Assembly (NCBI GenBank): GCA_900550495.1
Contig: URSJ01000005.1
Span: forward strand, 9,056-73,055
DNA length: 64,000 nucleotides
Direction of reading: 5' to 3'
Source: an uncultured Rickettsiales bacterium
Lineage (GTDB): Bacteria; Pseudomonadota; Alphaproteobacteria; Rs-D84
Of the stretch, positions 5,539-64,000 are shown piece by piece. The notes below the pieces were generated by a model. That model made no database searches. It was not told the origin of the DNA and saw only the letters and a program-made list of their open reading frames with translations. The translations under genes and the position numbers were made by a program. Each line of letters opens with the position of its first letter. The first letter of the stretch is position 1.

Positions 5539-5565
5539 TAAAAAAATGCGCCATTGGCGCACTTT

Positions 5566-9763: not shown

Positions 9764-10291
9764 ATGCAAGAAAATAAACCTGTTTTGGTCGTCGGACTGG
9801 GCAATCCTGGGGCGCAATATGCACGCACACGCCACAATGTTGGATTTATGGCGGTGCAAAAATTAGCCGGGGCGGATGCCACATGGCGCAGTGAAAAAAA
9901 TGCCAAAACTACATCCGGGGATATTGATGGACGTCGTGTTATATTCGCAATGCCCCAAACATTTATGAACCTGTCTGGGGACGCAGTTCGACCACTGATG
10001 GCATTTTATAAAATTCCGCTGGAAAATTTAATCGTGATTCACGACGATATGGATTTAGCGGTTGGTCGCATAAAGACCAAGATTGGTGGTGGCAGTGCAG
10101 GTCACAATGGCATTAAATCAATCGACGCGGCTGTTGGCAATGAATACTGCCGTATTAGAATCGGTATCGGTCATCCGCGTGATTTAGAAATCCCTATGTC
10201 GCCAGCAGATTGGGTTCTGGGAAAATTTGACGATGCGCAGATAACAAAAATAAATCATGCGATTTCAGAAATCAATTTGTTTAGCATTTAA
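9764..10291 (+). CDS. pth: Peptidyl-tRNA hydrolase
   Basis: LVVGLGNPGAQYARTRHNVGF and HNGIKS motifs. ATG at 9764 preferred to the TTG at 9728 used by the track. Confidence 0.95.
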   Translation: MQENKPVLVVGLGNPGAQYARTRHNVGFMAVQKLAGADATWRSEKNAKTTSGDIDGRRVIFAMPQTFMNLSGDAVRPLMAFYKIPLENLIVIHDDMDLAVGRIKTKIGGGSAGHNGIKSIDAAVGNEYCRIRIGIGHPRDLEIPMSPADWVLGKFDDAQITKINHAISEINLFSI

Positions 10292-48859: not shown

Positions 48860-49398
48860 TTTTTGTGCCGTATTAAACATCTATTTTACGTCGGGGGTAT
48901 TTTGCCCCCGATGTTTATTTGACAAAAAATTCTTGATAAAAACGCGTGTTTTAGTATCGTTATTGCGAAAGGAATTTGTGCAAAAACAGTTCACCACGGG
49001 GGAGGTTGAATTTCGCATGTTTTTGTCATGTCATGTTTTTCGGACGGTATTTTTCGGTTGCGTTTTTGCGACTGTGTTTTGCGTTTTTTGTGCTTGGGCG
49101 TTGCCAAATGATGTCAATCCTGATGATAATGGCACGACTTATGCGACAACCAGAGTGGTATTGCCGGCGTCAGTTATGTCAAGGATGTTGTGGCAAACAA
49201 GGAAAATACAATGAACAAGGTTATCAGTCTGACACCCAGTGTGACCGATGTCCAATATCCATCGGCATTGGCGGTCTATTCGTCGGTGTCAGAGCGTGTC
49301 AGCACATCATCTGCGGCAAATCAATCAATGGCGGGTAAATATAATGTTACGGGGACGCTTTCCGTTCCAGATTTACCATTGCCCAGGGCAGAATGAGG

Positions 49399-49514
49399 AA
49401 AAAAACAGGCACCAAAGTGCCTGTTTTTATGGTGAAATATCCTTTCGTATGAAAGGTTCTTATTAACGACTAGACATCTAATTCCAACTTGATTTTAGTG
49501 TTATTTCTTTCACC
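49399..49514 (-). ncRNA. Predicted tracrRNA
   Basis: Minus strand reads ...AAUCAAGUUGGAAUUAGAUGUCUAGUCGUUAAUAAGAACCUUUCAUACGAAAGGAUAUUUCACCAUAAAAACAGGCACUUUGGUGCCUGUUUUUUU. It has an 18-nt perfect anti-repeat core plus G-U pairs, then two hairpins and a U-tract. The 5' end is inferred from the promoter. Confidence 0.75.
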
Positions 49515-49548: not shown

Positions 49549-49607
49549 TTGATTTGCATTTATTTGTTATGTTTTGTATCATGTGATGTGCACAAAGGGG
49601 TGTGGTC

Positions 49608-52600
49608 GTGAAATATAAATTAGGCTTGGATTTAGGCAGCACATCACTGGGGTGGGCGGTCGTAGAATTAAACGATATGGATAATATAACCCGTTTGGTT
49701 GATATGGGGGTGCGTATATTTCCAGATGGTCGTGATGCGCAAAGTCATACACCAATCAATGTTGTTCGTCGCGAGCATCGTCAGATGCGTCGTCGCGGTG
49801 ATCGTGTGGCCTTGCGTAAAAAGCGCACATTGCAACTGATTCATAAATATGGAATGGATTTTGATATTCATTCAAATGTTTCGTTGGAAAATCCGTATGC
49901 GTTGCGTGCCCGTGCGGTCGTTGAAAAGTTGCAACCACATGAGTTGGGACGCGTTTTATTTCATTTGGCGTTGCGTCGTGGATTCAAGAGTAATCGTAAA
50001 GAAACCAGGGGCGAGGCCGGTGGAAAGTTAAAAAATGCAACGGCGTCTTTACAGGTGGCAATGGGTGACAAAACACTGGGGCAATTTCAATTTGAATCAC
50101 ACAGATACAGATTCGCAGAACAATTTGATGGAAATAAAATCAAAGATGGGGCGTTCTATCCGACGCGTGATATGTATCTGGCAGAATTTAATCGTATATG
50201 TACGGCCCAGGGATTATCAGATGAAATGCGAAAAGAATTTGAACATGCAATATTTCATCAACGTCCGTTATTGCCACCTGTTATTGGGACGTGTATGTTT
50301 GAACCGGGACAACTACGCGCATATAAATTTGAACCGGTGTTTCAACGGTTCCGTGTCCTGCAACAGATAAATCAATTGCGAATAATTGATAATGGTGTCG
50401 TAACGGAATTATCGGGTGAACAGCGTCAGAAATTACAAGATATATTATTACGGACGTTTGATGGTGTTAAGCGCGATAAATCAGGGCGTGTAAAGATTAC
50501 GTTTGCTGCGGTGCGAAAAATGCTGGGGTTGGCACGTGGTGTCCGGTTTAATCTGGAAACCGAAAAACGCAAAGAAATGGACGTTGACACGACAGCGTTC
50601 GCGTTTTCGGAATGTGGTTTGTCTGATTTCTGGTATGCGTGTCCAGACGATAAAAAATCGCAAATCTTGGCACGAATAAACGATGATACGCTGGGTGATG
50701 ATGATTTGGTCGACTATTTGGTGGAAAATTGTGGTCTGAATCCAGATGTGGCAGCTCAGTTGATACAACGCCCGTTTGAAGACGGGGTTGCGAATCTATC
50801 TGTCTGCGCCATGCAAAAGATGTTGCCATTTTTGGCGCAGGGTGATTTATACCATGTTGCGGCAGACAAGGCTGGATATAATCATGCTGACCGGGGTGTT
50901 GTTCAGATGGCACAACTGCCATACTATGGAGATGTTGCAGCATTAAAGCCGTCATTGGCTCCAGATAAAAATGGTGTATATCGCACAATGAATGCCACTG
51001 TTCATATTGCATTGAACCAGTTGCGTGCGGTTGTCAACGATTTGATTGCACGATTTGGCAGCGTACCATATGCGATAAATATTGAAATGGGGCGCGATGT
51101 TCGTGCGGGGGCGCTGGAACGAGCTGAGATAGACAGTCAGCAAGCCGCTAATAAACGTGAAAATGATCGTATCGCGTCGGAATTGGTGGTGATGGGGGTT
51201 CGGGTCAGTCGTGAAAATATTCAAAAATATAAATTGTGGGAAAATCTGGGCAAGAATCCATTAGACCGTCGTTGTGTTTATACGGGTGAAATTATCAGCA
51301 AAGAAAAATTATTTAGTCCTGAATTTGAGATAGAACATATACTGCCGTTTTCGCGCACACTGGATGATTCGATGGCGAATAAAACAATTTCTGCGGTGGC
51401 GGCAAACCGTTTCAAAGGAAATCGCAGCCCAGATGAAGCGTTCACAGACTCTAAATCGCCGTGGCATTATGATGATGTTGTTGCGCGTGCACAAAATTTA
51501 CCAGGGGCGACAAAGTGGCGGTTCAATCGTGGCGCAATGAATGCGTTCTTGCGTGACCAAGACTGTATTGCGCGTGCGTTGAATGATACGAGATTCATGA
51601 CGCGTATATCGGTCACGTATTTACAGCATGTATGTGCAGATAAATACCGTGTTACTGGAATGCCTGGGCGCATGACAGCGATGTTGCGCGATGCATGGCA
51701 TTTGGATTGGTGGAAAGACAAAGCGGACGCAGAAAAATATCGTGGTAATCATATTCATCACGCGATTGACGCGTTTGTTGTCGCGTGCACTGGGGCAGGG
51801 ATATTGCAGCGCTTGTCGCGAAACGCGATTGAAACTGATAAATTGTTTGGTAAACCCCAGAAAGAAAAACGCAGACAGTGGTTTGTTGATATGAATGTGC
51901 CGTTTGACGGTTTTGATTATTATGATTTCAAAATGCGGTGCGAAAATACGATTATTTCGTATCGTCAATCCCAGAAATCACCCAAAGATTCAAAAGGAAC
52001 AATTGGTTGTCTGCATGAAGACACGGCGTATAACCTGGAATTTTTTGAACGCGGAACATCTGCGGTGATGTCGCGACGCGACGCGTTGCCAACCACGGAC
52101 AAGGATAGAAAGGCATTTACCAAAGATTTCAACAATGTAAATCCAAAAACGCTGCAGATGTTTTTGAAAGACACAGGGACTACAAATGATGAGCCGAATA
52201 TCGCAAATAAATTTTTAGATTGGTGTACATTGCGCGATATCCGCAAAGTTCGTATGTATAAGCGTGGTGTTGACGTAACGACATATGTTCCTGTATTTCG
52301 AACAAAACGGCAACGTGATACATATCGTGCGGCGTATTTGAATTGGTATGTTGCCAGTGGAATTGCCGGCGGTATTGCCGATAAAAAAATGCGTTTGGCC
52401 CAGCAAGAAAAAGAAAAGGCTTTGCTGCAAGAATTTCAAAATGCGGCAAAGTTGGCCTATAAGTGGTATGTTGGTGGTAATAATTTCTGTGCCGATGTAT
52501 TTAAAATGCGTGATGACGATAAAAGGTATCCAAAACTGCGTGGCCGGTGGCAAGTTGAAATCTTGTCCAATTATAATGCGCAACTAGATGCAGGTTCGCC

Positions 52601-52937
52601 ATTGTGGCGACGCAAATATGCGACGGCCGGACGGGTAATGCGGCTGCGAATAAATGATATGGTTATGGCGACGTTTTCCAAAGCTGACCCAAAATTGCCC
52701 AAGGGATTGGTGGAAACGGTTATGCACCAATGCGCAATAGAAAATACGGATACGGTCAATGTGATATTTCGTGTTAAAAAAATCAGCAGTAATGGCACGA
52801 TATATTTACGTCCGCATTTTATTGCCAAGGAAGAGGGCGATACAAAGTCATGGGCCGCCAGCGCTACGTCATTGCAAGAGCATAACGCGCACAAGGTGTA
52901 TGTCAGCCCATCTGGAAAATTGCAATGCTCAGAATAA
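49608..52937 (+). CDS. cas9: Cas9, type II-C
   Basis: RuvC-I GLDLGSTSLGWAV, HNH EIEHILPFS..N.., RuvC-III HHAIDAFV. About 1109 aa. GTG 49608 is 8 nt after AAAGGGG (the track starts at GTG 49602). No csn2 or cas4 in the locus. Confidence 0.95.
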   Translation: MKYKLGLDLGSTSLGWAVVELNDMDNITRLVDMGVRIFPDGRDAQSHTPINVVRREHRQMRRRGDRVALRKKRTLQLIHKYGMDFDIHSNVSLENPYALRARAVVEKLQPHELGRVLFHLALRRGFKSNRKETRGEAGGKLKNATASLQVAMGDKTLGQFQFESHRYRFAEQFDGNKIKDGAFYPTRDMYLAEFNRICTAQGLSDEMRKEFEHAIFHQRPLLPPVIGTCMFEPGQLRAYKFEPVFQRFRVLQQINQLRIIDNGVVTELSGEQRQKLQDILLRTFDGVKRDKSGRVKITFAAVRKMLGLARGVRFNLETEKRKEMDVDTTAFAFSECGLSDFWYACPDDKKSQILARINDDTLGDDDLVDYLVENCGLNPDVAAQLIQRPFEDGVANLSVCAMQKMLPFLAQGDLYHVAADKAGYNHADRGVVQMAQLPYYGDVAALKPSLAPDKNGVYRTMNATVHIALNQLRAVVNDLIARFGSVPYAINIEMGRDVRAGALERAEIDSQQAANKRENDRIASELVVMGVRVSRENIQKYKLWENLGKNPLDRRCVYTGEIISKEKLFSPEFEIEHILPFSRTLDDSMANKTISAVAANRFKGNRSPDEAFTDSKSPWHYDDVVARAQNLPGATKWRFNRGAMNAFLRDQDCIARALNDTRFMTRISVTYLQHVCADKYRVTGMPGRMTAMLRDAWHLDWWKDKADAEKYRGNHIHHAIDAFVVACTGAGILQRLSRNAIETDKLFGKPQKEKRRQWFVDMNVPFDGFDYYDFKMRCENTIISYRQSQKSPKDSKGTIGCLHEDTAYNLEFFERGTSAVMSRRDALPTTDKDRKAFTKDFNNVNPKTLQMFLKDTGTTNDEPNIANKFLDWCTLRDIRKVRMYKRGVDVTTYVPVFRTKRQRDTYRAAYLNWYVASGIAGGIADKKMRLAQQEKEKALLQEFQNAAKLAYKWYVGGNNFCADVFKMRDDDKRYPKLRGRWQVEILSNYNAQLDAGSPLWRRKYATAGRVMRLRINDMVMATFSKADPKLPKGLVETVMHQCAIENTDTVNVIFRVKKISSNGTIYLRPHFIAKEEGDTKSWAASATSLQEHNAHKVYVSPSGKLQCSE

Positions 52938-53273
52938 TTGTAATTGGCCCGGACGCGATGCTAATGCGCGTGGGCTGTTTGCTTTGTCCAAGTGGATTAT
53001 ATCGCCAAATTGTGTGTCGGTGAAAAATAAAATATTTACGTCGCCTGTCCGTGGGTTGTTGCGTTTTACAGCGTGAACGTATTTTTGTGAATTTTCCCGC
53101 GTTCCGGTAAAACGCATATAGACTGAATATTGCGCCATTGAAAATCCCAGGTCTTGCAGAAAATTGCGAAACCGTGATGCCTCGCGACGTTCGTGTTTTG
53201 TATCGGTTGGCAAATCAAACATAACCATCATCCACATATATTTTAATCCATCAGTTTTTAATGACATTTTCAA
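52929..53273 (-). CDS. cas2: Cas2
   Basis: MMVMFDLPTDTKHERREASRFRNFLQDLGFSMAQYSVYMRF, typical type II Cas2. Its 3' end overlaps the cas9 3' end by 9 nt. Start uncertain (53273/53267/53237). Confidence 0.9.
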   Translation of the reverse strand: MKMSLKTDGLKYMWMMVMFDLPTDTKHERREASRFRNFLQDLGFSMAQYSVYMRFTGTRENSQKYVHAVKRNNPRTGDVNILFFTDTQFGDIIHLDKANSPRALASRPGQLQLF

Positions 53274-54159
53274 AGTCCAATTTGTTTTTCTTTTCTTTCA
53301 GTGAATTTACAAAATTCCAAACATCGCGTTGCATAATGGTGGCCAATGGTGATGTGCCACCACCCCGGGTTGGAATATTGGTCTCCAGGGTGCCCGACAA
53401 CATGCGTTTGTCGTCTGGGGTCAATTCGCGTGACGGATTATCGGTGCCATCAAATATGTCGTATACAATGGCGTCAATTACTGGACGATACACCTCCATC
53501 AAATCGTCCACCAGGCACATTGGGTTTAGTTGATTGTGGTGTTCTATGCCGTATGATGGGTTCAGACCACTGGCAACGACCAGGCGTGCCATTGCGCCCC
53601 GTAAAATAGCATAACCGTAATTCAGAAACGCATTGATTCCTTTGGCATTATGATTGCGTAAAAAATATGGGCCAAACAGACTGGTGAAATACATTCTAGC
53701 GGCAATACCTTCCATATTATTGCTGTCGCCAGATAATACCGCAGATGGGATATGTTTGATACGATTGTCTATGCCATATTTATCCAAAACGCGGGACTGG
53801 TTGCGAATTTTTTCTTGGACGATGCGTCGCCACAACTGCTTTTCTAGTGGGCGCGATGTATTTATTTGCATTTGCTGCACGGCCATTTGGCGATTTTGAC
53901 CAACCAGTGGCGTCATTATACCGATTGGATTATAGTTATCACCGATTATTATCAATGGTATTCCGTTTTCACACATGGCAGACATTAAAGCCTGGGTAAA
54001 AACAATTGCGCGTCCAGTGGCCATAACGGCGCATATGCTGTCTAATGGAACTTCTCCGATAGTTGTTCCGTGTTCTGTGACGCACAAGAATCCCCGTCGA
54101 ACCGACAGTTCGCGATTGTCGCTGGAAATTTCTATTATATTGGTTTGCATACTGCTCAT
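53251..54159 (-). CDS. cas1: Cas1
   Basis: 302 aa, type II Cas1 pattern (..ISSDNRELSVRRGFL.., ..NAFLNYGYAILRG..). Overlaps cas2. Confidence 0.93.
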   Translation of the reverse strand: MSSMQTNIIEISSDNRELSVRRGFLCVTEHGTTIGEVPLDSICAVMATGRAIVFTQALMSAMCENGIPLIIIGDNYNPIGIMTPLVGQNRQMAVQQMQINTSRPLEKQLWRRIVQEKIRNQSRVLDKYGIDNRIKHIPSAVLSGDSNNMEGIAARMYFTSLFGPYFLRNHNAKGINAFLNYGYAILRGAMARLVVASGLNPSYGIEHHNQLNPMCLVDDLMEVYRPVIDAIVYDIFDGTDNPSRELTPDDKRMLSGTLETNIPTRGGGTSPLATIMQRDVWNFVNSLKEKKNKLDFENVIKN

Positions 54160-54275
54160 ATAGGACTGTTTTTAGTTTTGTCAATACGTATTTTCGGAAA
54201 AAAGACGCAAAAAATAACGATAACGAATCGTTTCATGCGAAAAATAAGGTATTTTTTATTTTGAAATAAATTATA

Positions 54276-54300
54276 AAAAGCCCCGAATCTCGGGGCTTTT
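54276..54300. terminator. Hairpin terminator between the CRISPR array and cas1
   Basis: AAAAGCCCCGA-ATC-TCGGGGCTTTT, flanked by A/T runs on both sides. Confidence 0.65.
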
Positions 54301-54310
54301 GTTGATATGT

Positions 54311-54808
54311 ATTATATCAGATTGGAATTAGATGTCTAGCCGCAACGCGATGGCATCAAAAGGCGATTAAATAGGCAATTATATCAGATTGGAATTAGAT
54401 GTCTAGCCGCAACGTATAACAACAAATATGTCAACCAGACCAAATTATATCAGATTGGAATTAGATGTCTAGCCGCAACTGCAAATGCCGTTGAACAATC
54501 CGGTGTTTTATTATATCAGATTGGAATTAGATGTCTAGCCGCAACAAACATACCCCTCTATCTCAGAGAATATGATTATATCAGATTGGAATTAGATGTC
54601 TAGCCGCAACTGTTTGTGCGGCTGTGTATGTCAGAACCGCATTATATCAGATTGGAATTAGATGTCTAGCCGCAACCGAACGGTTCGGCGTTGACCTGGT
54701 AAGGGATTATATCAGATTGGAATTAGATGTCTAGCCGCAACTGATTCTGGTAAAAACATTATTGCCCCCTTTATTATATCAGATTGGAATTAGATGTCTA
54801 GCCGCAAC
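54311..54808 (-). CRISPR. CRISPR array: 8 identical 36-nt repeats and 7 spacers (29-31 nt)
   Basis: Repeats start at 54311, 54378, 54444, 54510, 54575, 54641, 54706 and 54773. crRNA-sense repeat (minus strand) is GTTGCGGCTAGACATCTAATTCCAATCTGATATAAT. Orientation is inferred from the GTTG...AAT form, tracrRNA complementarity and terminator position. Confidence 0.95.
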
Positions 54809-54842
54809 AATTAAATAAAATCAATAACTTAAATAATAAGAT

Positions 54843-55499
54843 TTATCGTGTTTTTTGCTTTCCCTTTAGCATTTTATTATATAATTCGTCAAATATGACA
54901 GGAATGTTCTTTGCAAATAATTCTAATGTCGGTTGCATAATTTCTTTTACACATGGACGAGAATTACCTAAAGCGCGTAATTCAAATATATGATACCATT
55001 CCCGTAGATTAGCTGTCATATTCATCTCAGCTGCAGTCGATTGTGGAAGTAATAGACTTAATTCATCTGGTGTTGCACCTAACGTAGCCATTTGTAAATA
55101 ATGTTCTTCAGCTTGTTGACAAGCATTTAACCAGACTTGATATTTCAATGTATCTTTAGGAATTTCAATTGGATCTAAGAATTTAATATTATTATCAAAC
55201 TTATCCTTTGAATAATTACACCAACGTGTGCTTTCAATTGCAAAACTAGAATGCCGCATACGAGTCAAATCTTTATATGCTGCAATATTAGTTAAATAAT
55301 TCATCGAAACAGAATAGTTTTCAATCATGGACGTATGCCCAGATTTCATTAAATTTGCTACAATCTTCTTTGCTGATTCTAAATCATCTGAATCCTTATA
55401 TGATTTATAACAGGTTCTAGCAATTCGTTGAATTAATAATAACGCTTCTTTACCATCAATTTTAGTTAATGGATTTACTTGTGCTTTAACGATTTTCAT
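54843..55499 (-). CDS. thyX: Flavin-dependent thymidylate synthase ThyX
   Basis: AGGAG 7 nt before ATG 55497-55499. GHTSMIEN and RMRHSSFAIESTRW (ThyX RHRxxSxxxxSxR signature with H to M) plus ...REWYHIFELR. Visibly AT-rich. Confidence 0.85.
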   Translation of the reverse strand: MKIVKAQVNPLTKIDGKEALLLIQRIARTCYKSYKDSDDLESAKKIVANLMKSGHTSMIENYSVSMNYLTNIAAYKDLTRMRHSSFAIESTRWCNYSKDKFDNNIKFLDPIEIPKDTLKYQVWLNACQQAEEHYLQMATLGATPDELSLLLPQSTAAEMNMTANLREWYHIFELRALGNSRPCVKEIMQPTLELFAKNIPVIFDELYNKMLKGKQKTR

Positions 55500-55543
55500 T
55501 TTTACTCCTTTATAAACAAATAAAATCAATGGAAAATATTATA

Positions 55544-55579
55544 ATTATATCAGATTGGAATTAGATGTCCAGCCGCAAC
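55544..55579 (-). CRISPR. Orphan ninth CRISPR repeat (35/36 identical; T to C at 55570)
   Basis: ATTATATCAGATTGGAATTAGATGTCCAGCCGCAAC on the plus strand, 735 bp from repeat 8. Confidence 0.9.
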
Positions 55580-55710
55580 CGGTTATTGGCACCGCCCTTA
55601 AAGAATGTCTGGATGGGCGTAGAGGCATATTCATAATTAAGATATTTTGCTAGCGATCTGGCACAGGTGGATTTTCCAACCCCATCCATACCCTTAATAT
55701 CAATGATCAT
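55561..55710 (-). pseudogene. 5' fragment of a P-loop nucleotide/nucleoside-monophosphate-kinase-like gene, cut off by the orphan repeat
   Basis: MIIDIKGMDGVGKSTCARSLAKYLNYEYASTPIQTFFKGGANN, after which the frame runs into the repeat (..RLRLDI*). Confidence 0.5.
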
Positions 55711-55830
55711 TTCTGGTCCTTAATTGCAAGTTTTAATATGTTTCTTGCTACCAGCAAATAGCATACCATCGCTTATTGTCAAGCAAAAATTGTCAAAAAT
55801 ATATATTTTGTCCAGTTGTCTTCTTTGTAA

Positions 55831-56103
55831 TTACTTTATTCCACTTTTACCGTATACCAATTTGAAGTTCCTGCGGTTCTTTTTACGAATAGAAACGTGT
55901 GGCTTGTCTGAGTCTATGACAAAAACAATCCTCCCAATCCAAATTCTGAAATATCTTGCATGTACTTTTTTGAATTTAACTGGTTCATGGGTTCGTATTT
56001 CTGTTCCGTCTGTGTGTTCATATTCAGTACTGCGTCCAAACCCATATTTGTTGTTATCAAAGTCCAAGCCATACTCTGTGAAAATCTTTTTAACTTTTGG
56101 CAT
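55831..56103 (-). CDS. Hypothetical 90-aa protein
   Basis: Strong AAGGAGG RBS 6 nt before the ATG. No recognisable family. Confidence 0.5.
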   Translation of the reverse strand: MPKVKKIFTEYGLDFDNNKYGFGRSTEYEHTDGTEIRTHEPVKFKKVHARYFRIWIGRIVFVIDSDKPHVSIRKKNRRNFKLVYGKSGIK

Positions 56104-56256
56104 GATTGTCCTCCTTTTCTCTATTAAATTCTGCCACGAATGCTCTAGGTTCGCAATAATTATTCTTTGAATTTACTAGTTTAGCATTTCTTCTTCAATA
56201 TCTAACGTGATTGAGGTGCTTTTATTGTCTACCTTGTTGATAAGACAATCTCTTTC

Positions 56257-56935
56257 ATGATTATAGCAAGTAATTGGACTGCCTCTGATACAAATGATGT
56301 GCTATTAAAATTTATCATGGTTGTCCTTCGATTCCTGAATTCTGACATGACCAAATTACCAGATGAAAAACGCTTGGCATTCAACCAATGCAAATATAGT
56401 GATGAACTGCTGAAATCAATGATTGAAAAAATCGTGTACAACAATCATAAAATAAGTACTTTTATAAAAATCAAAAATATCGAATATCTGCAAAATTTCC
56501 AAAAGCAAGACTATATGAATCCGACATGCGAGCCAATGGACTACTACGTCATCAGATGGGCAGTATGCGGTAATTGAAACCCCTCTATATTTCTCGGCTG
56601 GTACTTGTATTAACCAACGAAATGGCGATGTAGAAGTTGAATTACTGACAATGACCGGAAACACTCAAATACTAATCAAGGCACTGGCCTATGCGTGGAA
56701 ATATAAAAAGGAGTATGAAAACGGGGTTGGTATAAAGGCCATCGCAAAAAACGAACAACGCGATCAACGAACAATATATAAATACCTGAACCTGGCATAC
56801 CTGTCGCCACGGATTATCAACGACATCATGGACAGCAAAATCCCACCCCATGTCAACCTGCAAACGTTATTCCAAATCGCAAGTAAACATGAGAATTTTG
56901 GTGAACAGGAACAGGCATTTTATGAAATCAACTAA
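56257..56935 (+). pseudogene. Frameshifted, 5'-truncated serine-recombinase remnant (C-terminal HTH domain intact)
   Basis: The 56651..56935 product (LIKALAYAWKYKKEYENGVGIKAIAKNEQRDQRTIYKYLNLAYLSPRIINDIMDSKIPPHVNLQTL) matches the remembered C-terminal domain of a resolvase-family group. That frame is open back to 56519 and then shifts into the 56257..56577 frame. No catalytic N-domain is present. Confidence 0.45.
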
Positions 56936-57744
56936 TTAACGGGTTTAAATTCAATCTTAATAGGAAGTTCCGACATCGCATAATGTACAAAGTCCTTGCC
57001 CAAATTGGTTAATTCATATTGTTTGTTTGGTTCAAATGCTGATTCCATCGTTGTTGAAGCTGAACTTTTGCCAATACCAGATCGTTGTCTTAGAAATTGT
57101 CCATCGTATGTAACATTACGATGTTGTCTAATTATTCCACCTGTGGACAAATCTCTTATCACCAAGCGAAACAAATCTGCATCTGCGGAATTTTCTCTAA
57201 CTCGTTGGCGACCTAATTTATTCCAGATTTCAAAACGAGAAATCCCTTCTGGTTGGTTATAGATGGCTTCAATAACTCTAAAATGTAGCTCTGAGTATGT
57301 TTTTATCCAATCCAAGAACATACGTATCACATCATAGCTATAACTCCCTGATACATCTGCAGCCGTATTGGAAAGTATATTTCTGATGTAGATACGCTTT
57401 TGTTCGCTTTCGGCCGCCCCCCATTCACGAAATGCCTTTTTTGATAATGATTGAAAATCGGTGCTAGAAACTTTGTCTGCAATTTTTTCATCTTGAAAAT
57501 CTAATCTTGACATGATTTCAAGAATTGTCTGTTGCTTTTCCTTCATTTCATCTCGTAACATTGAAATCCAATTATATAAAAAAGCATTTGCTTTTTCTTG
57601 TTGCTTATCCTGGTATGCACCCTTTATCGCCGAAATAATTCCACCAGCATACGGTATTACACCAGCCAATACATCAAGTCCTGCCTTTGCTATTCTTTTA
57701 CCTTTGCTATCTTGTTCAATTTCTTCTGGTAAATTATCAGCCAT
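56932..57744 (-). CDS. Hypothetical 270-aa protein (N-terminal hydrophobic/Gly-rich segment, C-terminal winged-helix-like region)
   Basis: ATG 57742-57744 preceded by AAAGGA. The track ORF extends to 57786. Confidence 0.55.
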   Translation of the reverse strand: MADNLPEEIEQDSKGKRIAKAGLDVLAGVIPYAGGIISAIKGAYQDKQQEKANAFLYNWISMLRDEMKEKQQTILEIMSRLDFQDEKIADKVSSTDFQSLSKKAFREWGAAESEQKRIYIRNILSNTAADVSGSYSYDVIRMFLDWIKTYSELHFRVIEAIYNQPEGISRFEIWNKLGRQRVRENSADADLFRLVIRDLSTGGIIRQHRNVTYDGQFLRQRSGIGKSSASTTMESAFEPNKQYELTNLGKDFVHYAMSELPIKIEFKPVN

Positions 57745-57957
57745 AATCAAATCCTTTCTTTTTTCTAAAATATAGATTTTTTCCACAATTTTTCAATCCC
57801 ATTGACTCCACAAAATTAGGCATTATATAAATTCTGGTATATTATGGGTGGATTTGCGTATATTAGGGGAATACCGGAGTCAATGCATTCCGCGAATGCC
57901 CGCAGTGGGGGGCGGAGACACGAAAAAAGTCGCAACTGTGTGCGACCTTTCTAATTA

Positions 57958-57970
57958 CTGGTCGGGGCGA
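57958..57970 (-). repeat. 13-nt direct repeat CTGGTCGGGGCGA (minus: TCGCCCCGACCAG), copy 1
   Basis: Read directly. Matches the canonical 3' end of bacterial tRNA-Pro (..CGCCCCG-A-CCA). Followed on the minus strand by a terminator hairpin. Confidence 0.7.
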
Positions 57971-58126
57971 CAATGAGTAGGCGAGGGCGTGCATTGCACG
58001 GCCAAACCGTCACGAATGCCCCGCAGTTGTGGCCAAGCCACAACGAGGGAAAGATGAGAACCAAGTTTAAATCCGCGTCCCACGAAAAAAATAAAAAACG
58101 ACCCAAAGTGGTCGTTTATTATTTTT

Positions 58127-58139
58127 CTGGTCGGGGCGA
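58127..58139 (-). repeat. 13-nt direct repeat CTGGTCGGGGCGA, copy 2
   Basis: Read directly. The flanking ..CCGGTTCCCTTTCGCCCCGACCA looks like a decayed T-arm plus acceptor end. Confidence 0.7.
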
Positions 58140-58718
58140 AAGGGAACCGGTCATTTTTTGTAAAACCCCAGAAAACCAACCTTTTTTATGTTCTGCTTTT
58201 CCCAACCTTGTTAAAATGTCATACACTTTGTATCACACTTTCTTGTTGATACAGTTATAATCCATTTTTTTGATAATGTAAACTGGTTTTTATGGTCGTG
58301 AACCCAGTTTTTATATTTTTTGGGTCAATCGACCACTGTTTCAAGGATGTTTTATCAACGGAGTCATAAAATTTAGGGTTTTGGTATCATAATACCATAA
58401 AAATCAAAAAAAATGCAAAAAAATGACATTTATAAAGTCTAACAAGCGTTAAAAACGTAAAAAAAATAGTTCTAATATATATGGGGTGATAAATTTTGTC
58501 CCATAACCGAACCTATTTTTTATTAACCCCAAAAGACACCAAGTGGGGTCAAATCAAAATAAAATCCAAAAACAAATCAAATACCTTTGTCATCAAAAAA
58601 ATATCGGTATGATTATTTTTGTCGTTTTTTAACATTTGTCCCTTTTTGATGTCCTTTGGATTCCAATTAACATTTTCTGTAAATAATGCACAAACCGAAA
58701 CAACAGAGAGGTATAAAA

Positions 58719-59204
58719 ATGGATACCCAATTTCCAGCGATTATATTCGCAAGACAAAACCTATTTTTTAAACAGGATAAAGTGGATACCTTGACCCCAC
58801 AATTATTTAGAACTACAAAATATTGCTTAAAAAAAGATCTGGTAATTTTACAGACGTTTTTTGAAACACACCCAGCAGATTATGTATTTTATAAAATGAT
58901 AAACTACATAACCGATTTACATAAAACAGTTGCAGTTGTGTTTGATAGTGCAAAACAATTACCCACGTATGATTTTGGAAGAATTGTTTTATTAGATTTT
59001 TTATTCAGCACAAGCACCATTGAAATACATTTGGTTAAGGAAAATATGGTTTTGATGGACATAAAAAGCGAATATGAATCAAAAATGTGGTCAAAATATA
59101 CAAATACACATCCAAAAAAAATGCAGTGGTTACGTAACGGTATTGATGTTTACAAATATTTGGAACTAGATACCACAAATGGTTTACATACTAATCTTGG
59201 TTAA
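58719..59204 (+). CDS. Hypothetical protein
   Basis: ATG 58719 is 8 nt after AGAGAGG. The track ORF starts at 58686. No family recognised. Confidence 0.45.
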   Translation: MDTQFPAIIFARQNLFFKQDKVDTLTPQLFRTTKYCLKKDLVILQTFFETHPADYVFYKMINYITDLHKTVAVVFDSAKQLPTYDFGRIVLLDFLFSTSTIEIHLVKENMVLMDIKSEYESKMWSKYTNTHPKKMQWLRNGIDVYKYLELDTTNGLHTNLG

Positions 59205-59620
59205 TTTATAACAGGCTGGGTGCTTGTCGGGGAACAGTTGACCATTTCGGGCACCCACAGGATACTATTTTACCCAATTTTATTAAAAGACACAGTTTTA
59301 ACCGTTAGTGTCTTATCAACCAACGGAGTGATTATTGTGGGGTATCTGACCCCCGGTATAGGTGAAAAAACGCCTTTACGTTACGGTGCGTATAAATATC
59401 AGTTGTCGTTAATAGACACCTGTGTAAACGACATTATCGGACACTATGGACTTCATAAATAGACGTATTGAAAAATAATGTCGTATTTTATCGGTAATAT
59501 AACTGGGCAAGCCCCAAGTAAACAAATATACCTATAATTAAAATAAATAAAAAAATAACATACAAACAATAATAAAAATAACAATTAACATACCCCATAA
59601 TATAACACATCACTTACATT

Positions 59621-60169
59621 ATGGGGCACAAATATAGGAATAAAAAAATGACTAAATTCAACAAAAATACTTTTTACAGCAAACAGCAATATTATAAAAT
59701 GTTTCCTAAACTTATTTCGTTCCTAAACGAAGACAATCCCACACATTACTTATGTATTCGTTTACCCATTTATGCCGAAACTGATTGCAGTTACAAGGCA
59801 CTTGATTTATTACACCCAATTTTATTAAACCTTGAACGAAAATTATGTGGGTCACATTGGAATCGACATCATTTACGTTTTCGTGGTGTAACAGAATTGG
59901 GGACAAAACACGTGTGTCATTTTCATATTCATTTGACAGCACCCAATCATACCACCGAACAAATACAAAAAGTGTGTAATGATATTATAAAATTACGTAA
60001 AATGCCGTCACATGCTATATTAGTGCAAGACATAAACAGAACCCCTGAACATCTTGCGGGTTACAATACCAAAGAAATATATGTAGATAATTATAATAAC
60101 TTTGAATCGTTACGAATATTTACATCCAACGACTTGTTCAATATACCGTATAAACGCCCCAAAAAATAA
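59621..60169 (+). CDS. Putative HUH-motif protein (rolling-circle Rep / YagK-YfjJ-like)
   Basis: HVCHFHIHLTAP (HUH-like) and a downstream Tyr-containing AGYNTKEIY. Alternative start ATG 59648 after AGGA. Family call is tentative. Confidence 0.4.
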   Translation: MGHKYRNKKMTKFNKNTFYSKQQYYKMFPKLISFLNEDNPTHYLCIRLPIYAETDCSYKALDLLHPILLNLERKLCGSHWNRHHLRFRGVTELGTKHVCHFHIHLTAPNHTTEQIQKVCNDIIKLRKMPSHAILVQDINRTPEHLAGYNTKEIYVDNYNNFESLRIFTSNDLFNIPYKRPKK

Positions 60170-60176
60170 ATAATTA

Positions 60177-60374
60177 TTATTTTTGGACATCACGCACCCA
60201 TTTACCGTTTGAATCGTAAACGTGATTATGGGTGCTGAATATTCCACCGCTTGTGATAACAAAATCTGATGTATATGATACCAACGTCCCATTTACACGA
60301 CAATATTCACGATTGGAACTGTCGTAAAGTGATACTTGGTTGCCGCTTTGTTTTGCATACATTATTTTTTTCAT
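60177..60374 (-). CDS. Small hypothetical protein (65 aa) with an internal repeat pattern
   Basis: ..VSLYDSSNREYCRVNGTLVSYTSDFV..HVYDSNGKWV.., a pattern common in small mobile-element proteins. Confidence 0.4.
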   Translation of the reverse strand: MKKIMYAKQSGNQVSLYDSSNREYCRVNGTLVSYTSDFVITSGGIFSTHNHVYDSNGKWVRDVQK

Positions 60375-60454
60375 TTGTGCTACCTATACTCTGTTTCTAC
60401 GAGAATATTATAATACATAAAAATACTGTCGCAAACGGGTAATTTATAATTTTA

Positions 60455-60484
60455 TTGACTTTTACTAGGGTTTTATGTTACAAT
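60455..60484 (+). promoter_or_regulatory. Sigma-70 promoter with extended -10
   Basis: TTGACT (60455-60460), 18 nt, TGtTACAAT (60476-60484). Confidence 0.5.
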
Positions 60485-60490
60485 GACAGT

Positions 60491-60568
60491 CAGGTAAAGG
60501 GACTATATCCCACGTTAAGCATGTCTATGCAGCCGCAAGGTGTTCGTGTGGTGATTGTCCCTTTTTTT
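60491..60568 (+). ncRNA. Candidate about 75-nt structured small RNA
   Basis: Lies between the promoter above and a closing stem AAAGGGAC (60496-60503) / GTCCCTTT (60557-60564) followed by TTTTT. Internal hairpins GCAT-GTCT-ATGC and CC-GCAA-GG. No ORF. Confidence 0.4.
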
Positions 60569-61196
60569 ATATTTTGCAGGTTATAAAACCAAAATCTAAC
60601 CCTTGTTTGAATATACTGTCAAATCTGTCAATGGGTTTTATATGGTCTAAAACAGAAATTGCACCTAATTCACGCATCATACGTAATAATAAATTGTGCA
60701 TTTTATGACAGGGCATTTGTCTTTTATGGCAAATCAACAAAGAACCATTATGTGAAAACCGATTACGATACCGACGTATTTGGTCTATTTCAAAACAAAC
60801 CTTTTCCAAACGAATAAATGCCTGACGTTTAGAAAATATCTCTGACAATATATTCGGGTATTTGTTCCAAATTGTATCATTATATGTGGACATAAATAAC
60901 CGAGACCAAAAGGCAAAGGTTAAACTGTCTATCAATTCATTACGGTCTGTAATAAGTTTTTCGTCAATCAACTTTTCGTCTTGTTTAACAAAATCAAAAA
61001 TCCAATTTTCACCCATGTATTTGGAAAAAACAAAATCTATCTTGTTACGTAAGGCAACTTCAAATTGACTCAACAATGGGTAAAAACTTTCACAAAGTTC
61101 CACATTGAAAAAGTATTCTTTGATTGTTTCCGGTTTATTTGTATCACCATACTTTGATAAACGTTTTTCAGATAAAAAGTCAATAATTTCACACAT
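60567..61196 (-). CDS. Abi_2 (AbiD/AbiF-like) abortive-infection protein with a HEPN-type Rx4H motif
   Basis: ..ELCESFYPLLSQFEVALRNKI.. and IRRYRNRFSHNG (RNxxxH). ATG 61194-61196; the track starts at TTG 61220. Confidence 0.78.
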   Translation of the reverse strand: MCEIIDFLSEKRLSKYGDTNKPETIKEYFFNVELCESFYPLLSQFEVALRNKIDFVFSKYMGENWIFDFVKQDEKLIDEKLITDRNELIDSLTFAFWSRLFMSTYNDTIWNKYPNILSEIFSKRQAFIRLEKVCFEIDQIRRYRNRFSHNGSLLICHKRQMPCHKMHNLLLRMMRELGAISVLDHIKPIDRFDSIFKQGLDFGFITCKI

Positions 61197-61361
61197 TTGC
61201 CATACCGTTGTTACCGACAATATTATGACAAAATACCTATAATTTCAAGATAAAACCGAAGATTATTTAATAAAAAAAAGGGACGACTGAAAATTTACAC
61301 ATCGTCCCATTATATATACTATTATAATGCCAAAATACCACGGTGTAAACGGGTAAAATGA

Positions 61362-62531
61362 TTATTTAGCTACACCAAAAGCCCCGTTAAATTCTACATT
61401 ATTATTTTGAAATCCTACACCACCAACAGCTTCAGATGCTACATTATTGTCGCCATAGTATATAATATTGGTCTCTAAATTATTTACTGGTTTTTCTGAA
61501 TCCAACGCATAAGTATTTTCACCAGTCAAACTTGTATCTCCCGTCCATGATACACTGTAATTTCCATCCACGGGTTTATTAACGGTAACGGTATACCAGT
61601 TATTAAACGGCATAGTCAATGTAGTATTTCCTGACGCATCAATTTGCAACTGTGTGGCTGTATCACCCGTTTCTATTTTTGTAGACCCATTTTCGTGTAC
61701 TGGACCAAGTGCAGCAATGGCTTTACCTGTAAAGGTTGCACCAGCTAAGTTTTCTGGATTTTTAATTTCTTTTATTTCATAACCACCATAAACTATATTA
61801 TTATCATCACCAACACCGTCACCGTCTTCATGAATTTCTTTGGCTAATATTGTTGTATAACCAAAATCAGCGTATCTTAATTTACGAGCTAATCCTTTGC
61901 CTTGCAAATCAACAACATTACGATGCACGTATTCTGTTGGTTCCATATTTTCTGTGACAGAACTTATAATATCGTTCATTGTATTTTCAGGAACTTCATC
62001 TTCCCAGGCATCTCTGAATGCATTTTTTATTTCGTCAACAGTATATTGTTTCGGTGCCAAAGAGTCTGTATAATATGTATTAGCACCCACCGTTACATTA
62101 TATTTGTATACATTGTTACGAAAAACACTGCTGTCGTCATTTGCGGAATCTTCACGAACAGCCATTTCTTCTAGTTTGTCGCCATTATACATACGTATTT
62201 CTTTTATTCGCCCATTTTCTTCATCTATACCAAAAGATACATATTCATCACCAGGTTCTGTATCGTAATAAAATTTTGCATCATCTAAATGATAAGAAAT
62301 GTATTCTTTACCGCCATTTGTTACCGTTCCAGAACGTACGATACTTGGTGAAGTACCGTCTTTTGCCACTAAAATTTCCGATGCCATAGATGTTACATGT
62401 GAATTACTTGTTATTGCCGTTTCTGATGCACGCATACCAGAATCTGGGATAATACCAGGCTTTCCTCCGCCACTTCCGCCACCACAAGCAGCCAAAGCCA
62501 AAACAGACGTTAAAATTAAACATTTTTTCAT
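61362..62531 (-). CDS. Surface-lipoprotein-like protein with a TbpB/fHbp-type C-terminal beta-barrel
   Basis: Lipobox LAACGGGSGGG. ..LRYADFGY.., ..ATFTGKAIA.. and the terminal ..NGAFGVAK, as in Neisseria/Pasteurellaceae Slam-dependent lipoproteins (recognised from memory). Confidence 0.65.
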   Translation of the reverse strand: MKKCLILTSVLALAACGGGSGGGKPGIIPDSGMRASETAITSNSHVTSMASEILVAKDGTSPSIVRSGTVTNGGKEYISYHLDDAKFYYDTEPGDEYVSFGIDEENGRIKEIRMYNGDKLEEMAVREDSANDDSSVFRNNVYKYNVTVGANTYYTDSLAPKQYTVDEIKNAFRDAWEDEVPENTMNDIISSVTENMEPTEYVHRNVVDLQGKGLARKLRYADFGYTTILAKEIHEDGDGVGDDNNIVYGGYEIKEIKNPENLAGATFTGKAIAALGPVHENGSTKIETGDTATQLQIDASGNTTLTMPFNNWYTVTVNKPVDGNYSVSWTGDTSLTGENTYALDSEKPVNNLETNIIYYGDNNVASEAVGGVGFQNNNVEFNGAFGVAK

Positions 62532-62576
62532 AAATAACTCCCTTGGTTATAAAAAGTTGACCACCAAGGGAAATGG

Positions 62577-62657
62577 TGGTCGGGGAGTTCTCAAATCATT
62601 TGTTCATTGATTCTGCGGTTTTTCGGTTTCCCGTATTTTATAACCAACAGCTCCCCG
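62577..62657 (-). other. 81-nt element closed by a tRNA-Pro-like acceptor stem (CGGGGAG...CTCCCCG-A-CCA) with a non-tRNA interior
   Basis: Read directly on the minus strand. Inner hairpins CGG-GAAA-CCG and AATCA..TGATT. Overlaps the hairpin CCACCA-N7-TGGTGG just upstream of the lipoprotein RBS. Confidence 0.35.
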
Positions 62658-63013
62658 ACATAACATCAGGGATGACAACGGTGCAAAAACACCGAAACAT
62701 CAAATTACGATGCTTTCGCACCGGAACAAACGGGCTTGAGAAATGCCCGAACCCAATCTCTTGGATTCAAGGTAATTATAAAATATCAGACACGAAATGT
62801 AAATACTGATTTAAGAAAAAATTCTGAATAATCAAAATTAAATTATATTCTGCGCTGGTTTGTTAGGAAAAAATCGTAAATTCTTCGTTTCGGATCCATA
62901 TAGAACCATACAGAAACCATTAAAATTTGACACAGGATACCCTGGAACACGTTTTTAAGGGTAATTTATTATTATTTATGGTTTAACAAATCTGGAATTA
63001 AATCTGAATTATT

Positions 63014-63046
63014 TGTTCCCGTTGTTCCCGAAATTCCCTGTTCCCG
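63014..63046. repeat. Three direct copies of TGTTCCCG
   Basis: 63014-63021, 63023-63030 and 63039-63046, about 20 nt beyond the integrase stop. Confidence 0.8.
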
Positions 63047-63066
63047 AATAGTGTTTTTCACTATAT

Positions 63067-63987
63067 TTATAATTTTTTCATAATTTCAGTCCATTTATCA
63101 AAATGTGGTTGTAAAAAGTTGTATTTTAATTTATCAACCTGTTGTTTAATCTGTGGGACAGTGTGTTTTGAATAACTTTTTAACATCGTATTTTCGCCTT
63201 CCCAACCAATAATATCGTTGGTATAAGATTGGGTAACACCTGCATTTTGTAAATTATTACTCGCATTATTACGGAATGAATGAAAGTCCAATTTTTTATC
63301 TGTTGACCCTTTGATACCAATTTCGGTTAAAAATTTTAATACACCACGGGTTGCAAATTTCCCGTTATAAGTTCCGTTCTTTGTTTGACAGTTTGAAAAT
63401 ATAAAATCAGAATCCGTCTTTTTTAATTTTTGTTTCTGTTTTTGAATAAATTGAACAAATCCCATATTTAATAATTGTTCTGGAATCGGGACAATACGTT
63501 CTGACGCTTCGGTTTTTAATTGTTTCAACGGGTGGTTTTTAACAAAATGAATACAGTCAATACCGTCTTCTTTAATAATGTCACCATATTGTAATGTTAT
63601 TACTGCATTTAATCTTGACCCAGTAAATAATGCAATCATACACGCCCAAAATTGATCTGGATTTTCTTTGAAATAATTATATTTTGGGTCAAACATTTGT
63701 AATAATTGTTCATCAGAATATGGAAAATGTGGATTCTTTTCAGATTTTGGTGTTTTGTTAAAGTTAGGTAATATATTCAATAAGTTAGTTTTATAAACAT
63801 CTGGTTCCAAAAAATGTGCGTGATTTATAACTTCTTTGATATATCTCACGTGTTTCCGTTTGGAATCACCATTTATTTTACCGTTTTTTCTTATGACATC
63901 ACAAATGTCTTGAATCACATTTGGTTTATAAAAATCCGTATAATTGGACTTGGTGTCCATATTGATACCTTTCAAATTATTCTGCAT
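63067..63987 (-). CDS. Tyrosine recombinase/integrase
   Basis: ..ASERIVPIP.. (Arg I), FHSFRNN (HxxR), IIGWEG and ..LKSYSKH (Tyr). 306 aa. Starts 13 nt from the window edge. Confidence 0.88.
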   Translation of the reverse strand: MQNNLKGINMDTKSNYTDFYKPNVIQDICDVIRKNGKINGDSKRKHVRYIKEVINHAHFLEPDVYKTNLLNILPNFNKTPKSEKNPHFPYSDEQLLQMFDPKYNYFKENPDQFWACMIALFTGSRLNAVITLQYGDIIKEDGIDCIHFVKNHPLKQLKTEASERIVPIPEQLLNMGFVQFIQKQKQKLKKTDSDFIFSNCQTKNGTYNGKFATRGVLKFLTEIGIKGSTDKKLDFHSFRNNASNNLQNAGVTQSYTNDIIGWEGENTMLKSYSKHTVPQIKQQVDKLKYNFLQPHFDKWTEIMKKL

Positions 63988-64000
63988 TATATGATATTTA

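Follow-up and report, generated by a model that had tools for sequence, protein, structure and literature searches.

The window analysed here is a stretch of 64,000 nucleotides from an uncultured Rickettsiales bacterium (contig URSJ01000005.1 of assembly GCA_900550495.1), in which a thyX gene, coding for a flavin-dependent thymidylate synthase, is enclosed in a CRISPR array (short palindromic repeats, clustered and regularly interspaced). It was found that the 36-nt repeat ATTATATCAGATTGGAATTAGATGTCTAGCCGCAAC occurs in eight mismatch-free copies separated by spacers of 29–31 nt, followed after 735 bp by a ninth copy with a single mismatch (T→C at 55570). No repeat match was obtained in dinucleotide-shuffled sequence. 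The 735-bp interval contains one open reading frame (ORF) on the minus strand, with its ATG at 55499, its stop codon at 54845–54843 and an AGGAG ribosome-binding site (RBS) 8 nt 5' of the ATG. The ninth repeat (35/36 identical), and a complete thyX with an AGGAG RBS as the sole gene between two full repeats, had been described in a first-pass annotation made from the sequence alone. The repeat search and the reading frame bore out both descriptions.

On the minus strand, a sigma-70 promoter including an extended –10 element is matched at 11/12 positions in each repeat (Table 1). In the ninth repeat, the –10 box reaches to 55544, which leaves 45 nt to the thyX ATG, and the promoter is in sense with the gene. 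No terminator-like hairpin was found between the thyX stop codon and repeat 8; the only hairpins detected were at 54300–54276, past the array, and at 54108–54094. The promoter scan and the terminator scan agreed on these two points with the first-pass annotation, which had placed a repeat promoter upstream of thyX and had seen no hairpin downstream of it.

The locus is a CRISPR-Cas system of type II-C. Neither csn2 nor cas4 was found in it, and the ORF list for 49.6–54.2 kb shows no further sizeable gene beside cas9, cas1 and cas2. The anti-repeat of the gene for the trans-activating CRISPR RNA (tracrRNA) is the only other repeat-like sequence of the window (49463–49498, inverted, 9 mismatches). 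A promoter for this gene (TTGACT-16-TATAAT) was detected at 49548–49521, and cofolding of the tracrRNA with the minus-strand repeat gave a duplex of ∼27 bp at –68 kcal/mol. The array was concluded to be transcribed on the thyX strand, from the thyX end towards cas1, since three features agree on this: the anti-repeat of the tracrRNA, the promoters within the repeats, and the 54300–54276 terminator. In the type II-C system of Neisseria meningitidis, CRISPR RNAs (crRNAs) start at the sixth nucleotide of each spacer from promoters in the repeats, and spacers are newly acquired at the repeat adjoining the leader (PMC12477760). By analogy, each repeat of the present array probably carries a promoter, with crRNAs starting within the spacers. 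The tracrRNA gene, which had no annotation and has a near-consensus promoter of its own, is divergent from cas9, whereas cas1 and cas2 are convergent with it, and cas2 overlaps the 3' end of cas9 by 9 nt (52929–52937). Alignment across the same cas region suggests that four other loci (L004, L005, L006 and L007) share this unusual layout.

Table 1. Features of the CRISPR locus and its surroundings, followed by the alleles of the array found among strains
Feature	Position in the window, or contigs	Strand	Remarks
tracrRNA gene	49385..49505	-	anti-repeat about 49463-49498, two hairpins, terminator CAGGCACTTTGGTGCCTGTTTTTTT
cas9 (1111 aa)	49602..52937	+	Pfam HNH_4, RuvC_III, Cas9_a; PADLOC Cas9 3e-88
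cas2 (114 aa)	52929..53273	-	convergent with cas9; Pfam CRISPR_Cas2 6.5e-15
cas1 (302 aa)	53251..54159	-	Pfam Cas_Cas1 1e-30
Leader region	54160..54310	-	intrinsic terminator 54300-54276 ending crRNA transcription
CRISPR array	54311..54808	-	8 identical 36-nt repeats and 7 spacers (29-31 nt), TAGACA-16-TGATATAAT in each repeat
735-bp insert, oldest spacer slot	54809..55543	-	by homology a T4-like phage genome fragment
thyX coding sequence, 218 aa and stop	54843..55499	-	Pfam Thy1 (PF02511) E=5.8e-30; PHROG thymidylate synthase
Terminal (trailer) repeat	55544..55579	-	variant ..GATGTCCAGCC.., TGGACA in the -35-like box; the 'orphan' repeat of the first-pass annotation
Truncated thymidylate-kinase-like ORF, 49 codons	55561..55710	-	runs into terminal repeat; P-loop GMDGVGKST
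Strain-variable region	55580..57947		between terminal repeat and tRNA-Pro-associated element
Allele: array with thyX	window (ThyX = P0132)		cas genes, 8 repeats, thyX, terminal repeat
Allele: array with thyX and 1505 bp	L027, L028, L012		cas genes, 23 spacers, 1505 bp, thyX, terminal repeat
Allele: array without thyX	L015, L016		cas genes, 27 repeats, normal last spacer
Allele: cas-less with thyX	L019, L026, L035-L046		window 49488 joined directly to repeat-thyX-repeat
Allele: cas-less, single repeat	L017		one terminal repeat only

Terminal repeat and source of the thyX insert

The exact repeat was found in metagenome-assembled genomes of gut Alphaproteobacteria (Candidatus Enterousia and relatives), and the arrays of related loci were compared. 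L007 and L002 have in common only the cas-distal last spacer and the degenerate last repeat, and the window, L012 and L027 have in common only the cas-distal thyX unit. The motif beside repeat 1 (..TTTTGTTGATATGT) is kept across related species. Because sharing is confined to the cas-distal end and the cas1-proximal flank is conserved across species, new spacers were concluded to enter beside cas1, and thyX to occupy the oldest slot. L015 and L016, which are 96% identical to the window over cas9–cas1, contain 27 repeats with normal spacers and no thyX. In both, the last repeat shows the T→C change as well and is followed by the outer flank seen in the window (CGGTTATTGGCACC...), and L015 has a normal 30-nt spacer where the window has thyX. 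In L017, the terminal repeat is the only repeat left. The ninth repeat of the window is the conserved terminal repeat of the species and not a foreign one.

The outer flank codes for the first 44 codons of a thymidylate-kinase-like protein, and the truncation coincides precisely with the outer border of the terminal repeat. The ORF gave weak Pfam matches (dNK/Thymidylate_kin) and a match to phrog_761 thymidylate kinase (3.9e-6), and it was present in all alleles with this outer flank, with or without thyX. A degenerate repeat beyond the terminal repeat, which would make the kinase fragment another giant insert, was also looked for, and nothing there scored above shuffled sequence.

The ThyX protein of the window matches Thy1 over its full length (residues 20–202 against profile positions 9–191 of 191). 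Outside its 99% cluster, the closest ThyX proteins were 97% (P0002), 82% and 81% identical. The protein was 97% identical to the copies on the phage contigs L013 and L024, and at the DNA level positions 54805–55526 of the window were 94.6% and 93.5% identical to these contigs, respectively. A further relative at 79% identity lies on L010, a phage contig which encodes gp23, gp32, UvsW, UvsX, gp13 and gp15; L011 encodes the same set, and L014 is similar. L024 is a contig of 125.6 kb (ERZ27275977 k141_180071) with a T4-type nucleotide-metabolism cluster at 327–10657. This cluster, which ends with thyX and is followed by a T4 RNA ligase, contains AGT and TAGT glucosyltransferases, a ThyA-family enzyme, a dCMP deaminase, DNMK, SHMT and NrdD/NrdG. 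Relatives at ∼64–65% identity were also phage-borne where examined, one of them on a 243-kb contig. The ThyX relatives in IMG/VR were only 26–39% identical, and no DNA match to the insert was found in INPHARED.

The GC content of the insert is 29%, compared with 28.5–33% for the phages and 46% for the host, and the insert consists of the ∼14 last codons of the upstream phage gene, the RBS, the complete thyX and 34 nt of 3' flank. Judged by these sequence comparisons, the 735-bp insert is T4-like phage DNA and not a resident gene. The first-pass annotation had proposed that thyX and its flanks be compared with phage sequences, and the comparison placed the closest relatives in T4-like phage contigs, an origin which the annotation itself had not named.

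The canonical ThyX motif is RHRxxSxxxxSxR. The corresponding region of the window copy is RMRHSSFAIESTR (residues 78–90, window 55266–55228), in which the Arg, Ser, Ser and Arg residues are kept and Met replaces His at the second residue. The same reading was observed in all phage homologues examined. The window copy resembles the ThyX of T4-like clusters in this motif, in its full-length Thy1 domain and in its protein identity, and differs from them in that it stands in a bacterial array, without phage neighbours and without the purifying selection found between phages. For the L024 lineage, from which the donor phage probably came, the presence of AGT/TAGT, the ThyA-family enzyme, DNMK and SHMT beside thyX suggests that the phage DNA contains glucosylated hydroxymethylcytosine, and the captured thyX suggests that T4-like phages of the L024 type are associated with gut Alphaproteobacteria.

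Three origins of the arrangement had been considered in the first-pass annotation: recombination with a solitary repeat carried by a mobile element, integration of an over-length prespacer by Cas1–Cas2, and splitting of an older array. The first of these lost its footing, because the terminal repeat and its flank already exist in the thyX-less L015, the phage relatives lack repeats, and IMG/VR contains no copy. The phage DNA surrounding thyX contained no repeat, over up to 10 kb to either side for L010 and L024, over 10 kb upstream for L025, and over the short contigs L013 and L014, and the number of exact repeat copies in IMG/VR was 0. The same observations bear on a wider form of this explanation, in which a solitary unit, a mini-array or an RNA anti-CRISPR carrying repeat–thyX(–repeat) would have entered by repeat–repeat recombination. 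Solitary repeats (Racrs) are known in phages (PMC10651486), and repeat-mediated exchange clearly moves the unit: the window and L027 share 99.5% identity in it, against 96% in their cas genes. Nevertheless, this route is highly improbable, because the ninth repeat is the host's own and the donor of a second insert, described below, is a repeat-less bacterial chromosome. The viral solitary repeats, RNA anti-CRISPRs and mini-arrays (PMC10651486) are similar to the present locus in that an off-array repeat stands by phage-type genes, and L017 has a single leftover repeat. They are found in viruses, whereas the lone repeats observed here lie on the host chromosome, as remnants or terminal copies of the host array itself.

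Site-specific prophage integration was considered and rejected, since the insert holds only thyX and no integrase, and the donor flanks have no att similarity to the repeat. The prophage phiAP1.1 of S. pyogenes integrates in CRISPR repeats by means of a phage integrase and a repeat-homologous attP (Varble et al., bioRxiv 10.1101/2020.10.09.333658). In both cases phage DNA lies between two repeats, and excision or recombination can delete or move spacers; phiAP1.1 is a whole prophage, whereas the present insert amounts to 735 bp of phage DNA, lacks an integrase and comes from a donor without a repeat-like att site.

Independent assemblies (SPAdes, MEGAHIT, Logan and JGI) yielded the repeat–thyX–repeat unit in more than 40 contigs, and in some copies the flanking repeats carry private mutations (2–3 mismatches). 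False joins at repeats can occur in metagenome assembly, and the same sample sets contain both phage and host, so that a chimeric join through the 36-nt repeat might have put phage reads into a host array. The probability of such an artefact is practically negligible. The contigs come from varied assemblers and studies, and one of them is 247 kb long at 355× coverage. Private repeat mutations are impossible from graph collapse, host synteny is kept on both sides, and the known phages lack a repeat at which a join could form. The first-pass annotation had made the arrangement depend on reads that span the repeat–thyX–repeat junctions, and the recurrence of the unit in independent assemblies shows that it is no assembly artefact.

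Second insert and alleles among strains

A second gene-sized insert was found in sister strains. In L027, a 247-kb contig with 355× coverage and 20 similar contigs, the order in crRNA sense is terminal repeat, thyX (735 bp), repeat, 1505 bp, repeat, 23 spacers (29–30 nt), leader and cas1-cas2-cas9. L028 has the same structure. In the Logan contig L012, repeat–thyX–repeat is followed by a 1504-bp segment and an exact repeat, with the same junctions as in L027. The 1505 bp hold the ∼165 last codons of a RumA-type methyltransferase gene, a complete cytidine deaminase gene, a small ORF and the ∼70 first codons of a gene for a PgpH-type 7TM-HD protein. All of these genes are antisense to the crRNA, and rumA and pgpH are both truncated. 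The same order with full-length genes (rnt-rumA-cdd-orf-pgpH-ybeY-dgkA) was found on chromosomal contigs of an AT-rich gut bacterium, to which the 1505 bp are 97–98% (L032) or 81% (L029–31) identical at the nucleotide level. No repeat and no junction microhomology was observed in the flanks of these donor-type contigs (L029–L032).

The 235 other spacers from 13 arrays with this repeat are 27–31 nt long, compared with 735 and 1505 bp for the two inserts. In L027, the two giant inserts occupy the two oldest of 25 slots, for which the chance would be 1/300 if the events were random. It appears that the array twice took up kilobase-sized foreign DNA cut at arbitrary points, and then resumed the acquisition of normal spacers.

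The comparison with related loci, which had been advised in the first-pass annotation, also revealed alleles with and without thyX, the cas genes and the second insert (Table 1). Many strains of the species lack cas9, cas2, cas1 and the array. The cas-less contigs are 98–99% identical to the window, and their flanking repeats carry private mutations. The junctions of cas loss were located at 5430–5512 in L017, 1900–1975 in L019 and 8542–8600 in L026, which correspond to window position 49472 joined to 54773 or 55544. The left breakpoint lies within the tracrRNA anti-repeat, the last ∼25 nt of which are swapped for the repeat-like GATTCACAACCAATCATAACATA. In these strains, the promoter of the remaining repeat now faces directly into the tracrRNA gene.

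The repeats evidently serve as recombination sites which shuffle the thyX unit among strains. According to the first-pass annotation, the arrangement would couple thyX and the array, in that repeat–repeat recombination would delete the gene. The genetic part of this proposal held, as such deletion is visible in the L017 and L015 alleles, whereas its functional part was weakened, because the gene is phage-derived, near-neutral, frameshifted in some strains and outlives the cas genes.

Junctions and mechanism of insertion

The junction of the thyX insert with repeat 8 is exact: after ..TTTATTTAATT, the array continues with GTTGCGG and the phage with TTTGAAAAAAGTGC, the phage sequence running on past the junction into its own terminator. 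On the side of the terminal repeat, clear phage homology begins 27 nt before the ATG. For the two inserts taken together, donor homology reaches the repeat edge at three of the four junctions, the fourth being approximate. Full 36-nt repeats border both inserts, and no repeat-like similarity was found in the donor flanks of either. A 13-bp direct repeat, AAATAAAATCAAT, is located near both ends of the thyX insert (54812–54824 and 55518–55530). It has no evident mechanistic role: one of the copies belongs to the normal 3' flank of the phage, and at the other position no more than a 9-nt core occurs in the phage relatives. An AT-rich coincidence is probable.

From these junctions, it is somewhat probable that the inserts are over-length 'spacers' which were inserted by Cas1–Cas2 with duplication of a repeat. 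A Cas1-type integrase was inferred because a precise 36-bp target duplication without donor homology is its signature. The aberrant integration of untrimmed fragments was favoured because there are full repeats on both sides, the donors are repeat-less, the 1505-bp junctions have no homology and the ends ignore gene boundaries. Such features are the expected products of a transposase-type reaction on a target with a fixed stagger, as catalysed by Cas1–Cas2 at a CRISPR repeat and, for kilobase DNA, by casposases. Among the three origins considered in the first-pass annotation, over-length integration by Cas1–Cas2 gave the best fit, with its repeat-abutting ends and repeat-less donors. The splitting of an older array agrees only trivially with the data, in that the terminal repeat is set apart from the rest, and no spacer remnant was seen at the repeat-8 junction.

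In such an event, Cas1–Cas2 would use the two 3' ends of an untrimmed fragment of kilobase size to attack a single repeat at both of its ends, and gap repair would duplicate the 36-bp repeat. In sister strains, a second such event would have filled the adjacent slot with 1505 bp from the chromosome of another bacterium, after which 29–31-nt acquisition would have resumed. The capture of thyX as a whole gene would be owing only to its small size. Lying in sense behind the terminal-repeat promoter, thyX would probably form the 5' part of a very long pre-crRNA which reads into repeat 8, and as the last 27 nt of the insert by repeat 8 still match the phage, the unit could yield a guide. Later recombination between repeats and in the flanks would have shuffled the unit; one event would have deleted cas9, cas2, cas1 and the array, and one strain would have lost thyX too.

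The clustering of both inserts in the oldest slots suggests, by analogy, a special early state, in which the array was rebuilt from one or a few repeats and apoCas9 boosted acquisition. In Neisseria, apoCas9 drives 'super-adaptation' when repeats are few (PMC12477760). Long inserts would have gone unseen in that study because +1 bands were selected (PMC12477760). As speculation, glucosylated hydroxymethylcytosine DNA of the phage might block prespacer trimming. It is a serious possibility, albeit somewhat short of probable, that natural type II-C Cas1–Cas2, with or without Cas9, integrates untrimmed fragments of 0.7–1.5 kb at the leader-proximal repeat in a few-repeat state, and that CRISPR arrays are occasional casposon-like sites of gene capture and horizontal gene transfer.

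Several points weigh against integration by Cas1–Cas2. We know of no Cas1–Cas2 which integrates kilobase DNA in vivo, and a molecular ruler of ∼30 bp is present in the structures of complexes of types I-E and II-A. The length of neither insert conforms to the 29–31-nt ruler of the other spacers. Repeat 8 has the consensus sequence while the terminal repeat has the T→C change, so that a simple duplication needs later mutation or gene conversion. For the 17 nt beside the terminal repeat, the alignment with the upstream phage gene (3' end) is weak and contains indels, which makes this junction approximate. The phage flank past the thyX fragment, TTTGAAAA in the 94%-identical relatives, does not fit the tentative protospacer adjacent motif (PAM) given below. 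Finally, the thyX unit is nearly the same in the window and L027 while the cas genes have diverged and the outer flanks are unrelated, and this mosaic limits any inference about the order of events.

The flanks TAAAACA and CGAATG, obtained from two overlapping-spacer pairs, gave a tentative PAM of NNAA, which the 1505-bp donor flank GAAAG fits. None of the 235 spacers from the 13 arrays matches either insert. Matches of 212–235 spacers to all compared loci were at chance level, and one 19-nt match was to a generic RBS/ATG region. No protospacer was obtained from concatenated spacers against INPHARED or from two IMG/VR pattern scans. It was observed that five spacers (UBA_s27, L018_s12, s24 and s25, and L006_s8, from loci L003/L005, L018 and L006) are directed to one conserved target, GGCTGTGCCACGGCG...AAAAGGAA, with common 3' ends. 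As independently acquired spacers from the arrays of different species, they would point to a protospacer hotspot in a common invader; no IMG/VR match to this target was found.

A different route would be a spacer-templated double crossover, in which two adjacent 30-bp spacers, with protospacers ∼0.7 kb apart in the phage or ∼1.5 kb apart in the bacterium, recombine with the donor, and the intervening donor DNA replaces spacer–repeat–spacer. This likewise gives repeat-edge junctions without a repeat in the donor. Recombination between spacers and matching protospacers of phages reportedly occurs in staphylococci (Varble et al. 2019), T4-like phages bring recombination functions (UvsX and UvsW in L010), and the sequence 30 nt in from the 5' end of the thyX insert, ATAA, fits the tentative PAM. 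We regard the double crossover as unlikely, because the right pair of adjacent co-oriented spacers would be needed twice running in one lineage, and 0 of the 235 spacers match the inserts. In addition, 30 bp lies at the lower limit for RecA-type exchange, Cas9 cuts at both protospacers would, by our reasoning, leave 3 bp of homology at one fragment end, and the position in the two oldest slots would be unexplained.

Integration by Cas1–Cas2 was also compared with known systems. Canonical acquisition, as in type II and the Neisseria II-C system (PMC12477760), is alike in the foreign insert between complete repeats, the repeat as duplicated target, a time-consistent array order, a phage or foreign chromosomal source, and repeat-embedded promoters transcribing toward the leader. 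It differs in that the present inserts of 735 and 1505 bp are ∼25–50 times over length and contain whole genes, the role of the enzyme being deduced from the junctions. The casposase is a Cas1 homologue which inserts kilobase DNA with a fixed-length target duplication, presumed to be the ancestral reaction of spacer integration (PMC7786333, PMC8464041). The similarity to casposons would lie in a Cas1-family integrase, here a putative one, acting on kilobase DNA with a fixed-length duplication. Casposons have terminal inverted repeats and their own casposase, whereas the present inserts have neither, are random donor fragments and have the 36-bp CRISPR repeat as target.

No description of gene-sized, repeat-bounded inserts in spacer slots was found in full-text literature searches, the nearest cases being repeat-integrated prophages, the solitary repeats of phages and casposons. 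Spacer length is regarded as fixed by the ruler and acquisition assays usually seek only '+1 spacer' bands, so that kilobase inserts would be missed. If Cas1–Cas2 made the inserts, the CRISPR integrase would keep a casposase-like ability to insert long DNA, arrays could import whole genes, and array finders which cap spacer length would split such arrays or end them wrongly. The locus offers a testable natural case, in that its donors and junctions are known and several alleles either contain or lack the inserts.

Fate of thyX in the host and the outer neighbourhood

In 17 host-borne thyX copies (8 DNA alleles), 9 nonsynonymous and 3 synonymous segregating changes were found, which gave a pN/pS of ∼0.75 (522.7 nonsynonymous and 131.3 synonymous sites). 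The dN/dS values between phages and between host and phage were 0.05–0.07. Independent frameshifts were observed in L019 and L026, and the 90% ThyX cluster contains further fragments of 161, 82+126, 128 and 133 aa, so that at least 5 independent disrupted forms exist, in about a quarter of the contigs counted. Because of the pN/pS of ∼0.75, the frameshifts and the alleles without thyX, the gene was considered to be drifting in the host. It would be a passenger rather than a co-opted metabolic gene, with no sign of purifying selection in its present host. Against this stands the observation that thyX is intact in most contigs, many of them without cas genes, and the gene may bring the host a minor or recent benefit.

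The alternative is that thyX has been kept as a host thymidylate synthase driven by the repeat promoter, which would couple CRISPR and dTMP synthesis. The intact ORF with its RBS, lying in sense behind a strong promoter-like repeat with no terminator between, is in line with such co-option, as is the retention of both repeats in many cas-less contigs. It is nonetheless decidedly unlikely: 9 nonsynonymous changes out of 12 are very improbable under phage-level constraint, disrupted forms of thyX and the thyX-less alleles L015 and L017 occur within the species, and the neighbouring 1505-bp insert carries cut, antisense genes, which argues against any selection for function in the process. The case also shows that a metabolic gene found in an unusual place is not necessarily functional, even when it is intact and lies next to a promoter.

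A single mobile island with its own repeat, reaching from 54.8 kb to the window end, was considered and rejected, since L004, L015, L017, L019 and L027 show the thyX insert, a variable defence slot and a tRNA-Pro integrase island to be three separate things. The strain-variable region next to the terminal repeat is missing in species L004, and in L027 it is replaced by a C5 methylase gene and a 327-aa ORF. Within this region, the cassette in the slot at 56913–57800, which is flanked by a DUF3977-like ORF and the tRNA-Pro element, differs between nearly all strains. In the window it contains a 284-aa ORF (56932–57786), and elsewhere Lit-like Peptidase_U49, DUF4238, 270- and 290-aa proteins, or the C5 methylase with the 327-aa ORF (loci compared: L035 2534–3571, L037 4385–5509 and L027 4862–6779). 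The slot looks like a defence-gene hotspot beside the CRISPR array.

The variable region is followed by a 196-bp element (57948–58143), which has a GC content of 52% and is 89–99% conserved across species. A search of this element against Rfam gave nothing above noise. It is bracketed by copies of the 3' end of tRNA-Pro(TGG) (57958–57970 and 58127–58139) and by two similar terminator hairpins. An intact tRNA-Pro follows the element in L004, L003, L015, L017 and L027, and the element looks like the scar of an old tRNA-Pro integration. In the window, an AT-rich island of ∼30% GC (58144–64000) lies at the tRNA-Pro 3' end, and the tRNA is displaced beyond the window. The island contains a tyrosine integrase gene (63067–63987, minus strand), a PD-T4-5/Abi_2-like defence gene (60567–61220; PADLOC 4.9e-16) and a weak Rep-like ORF (59621–60169).

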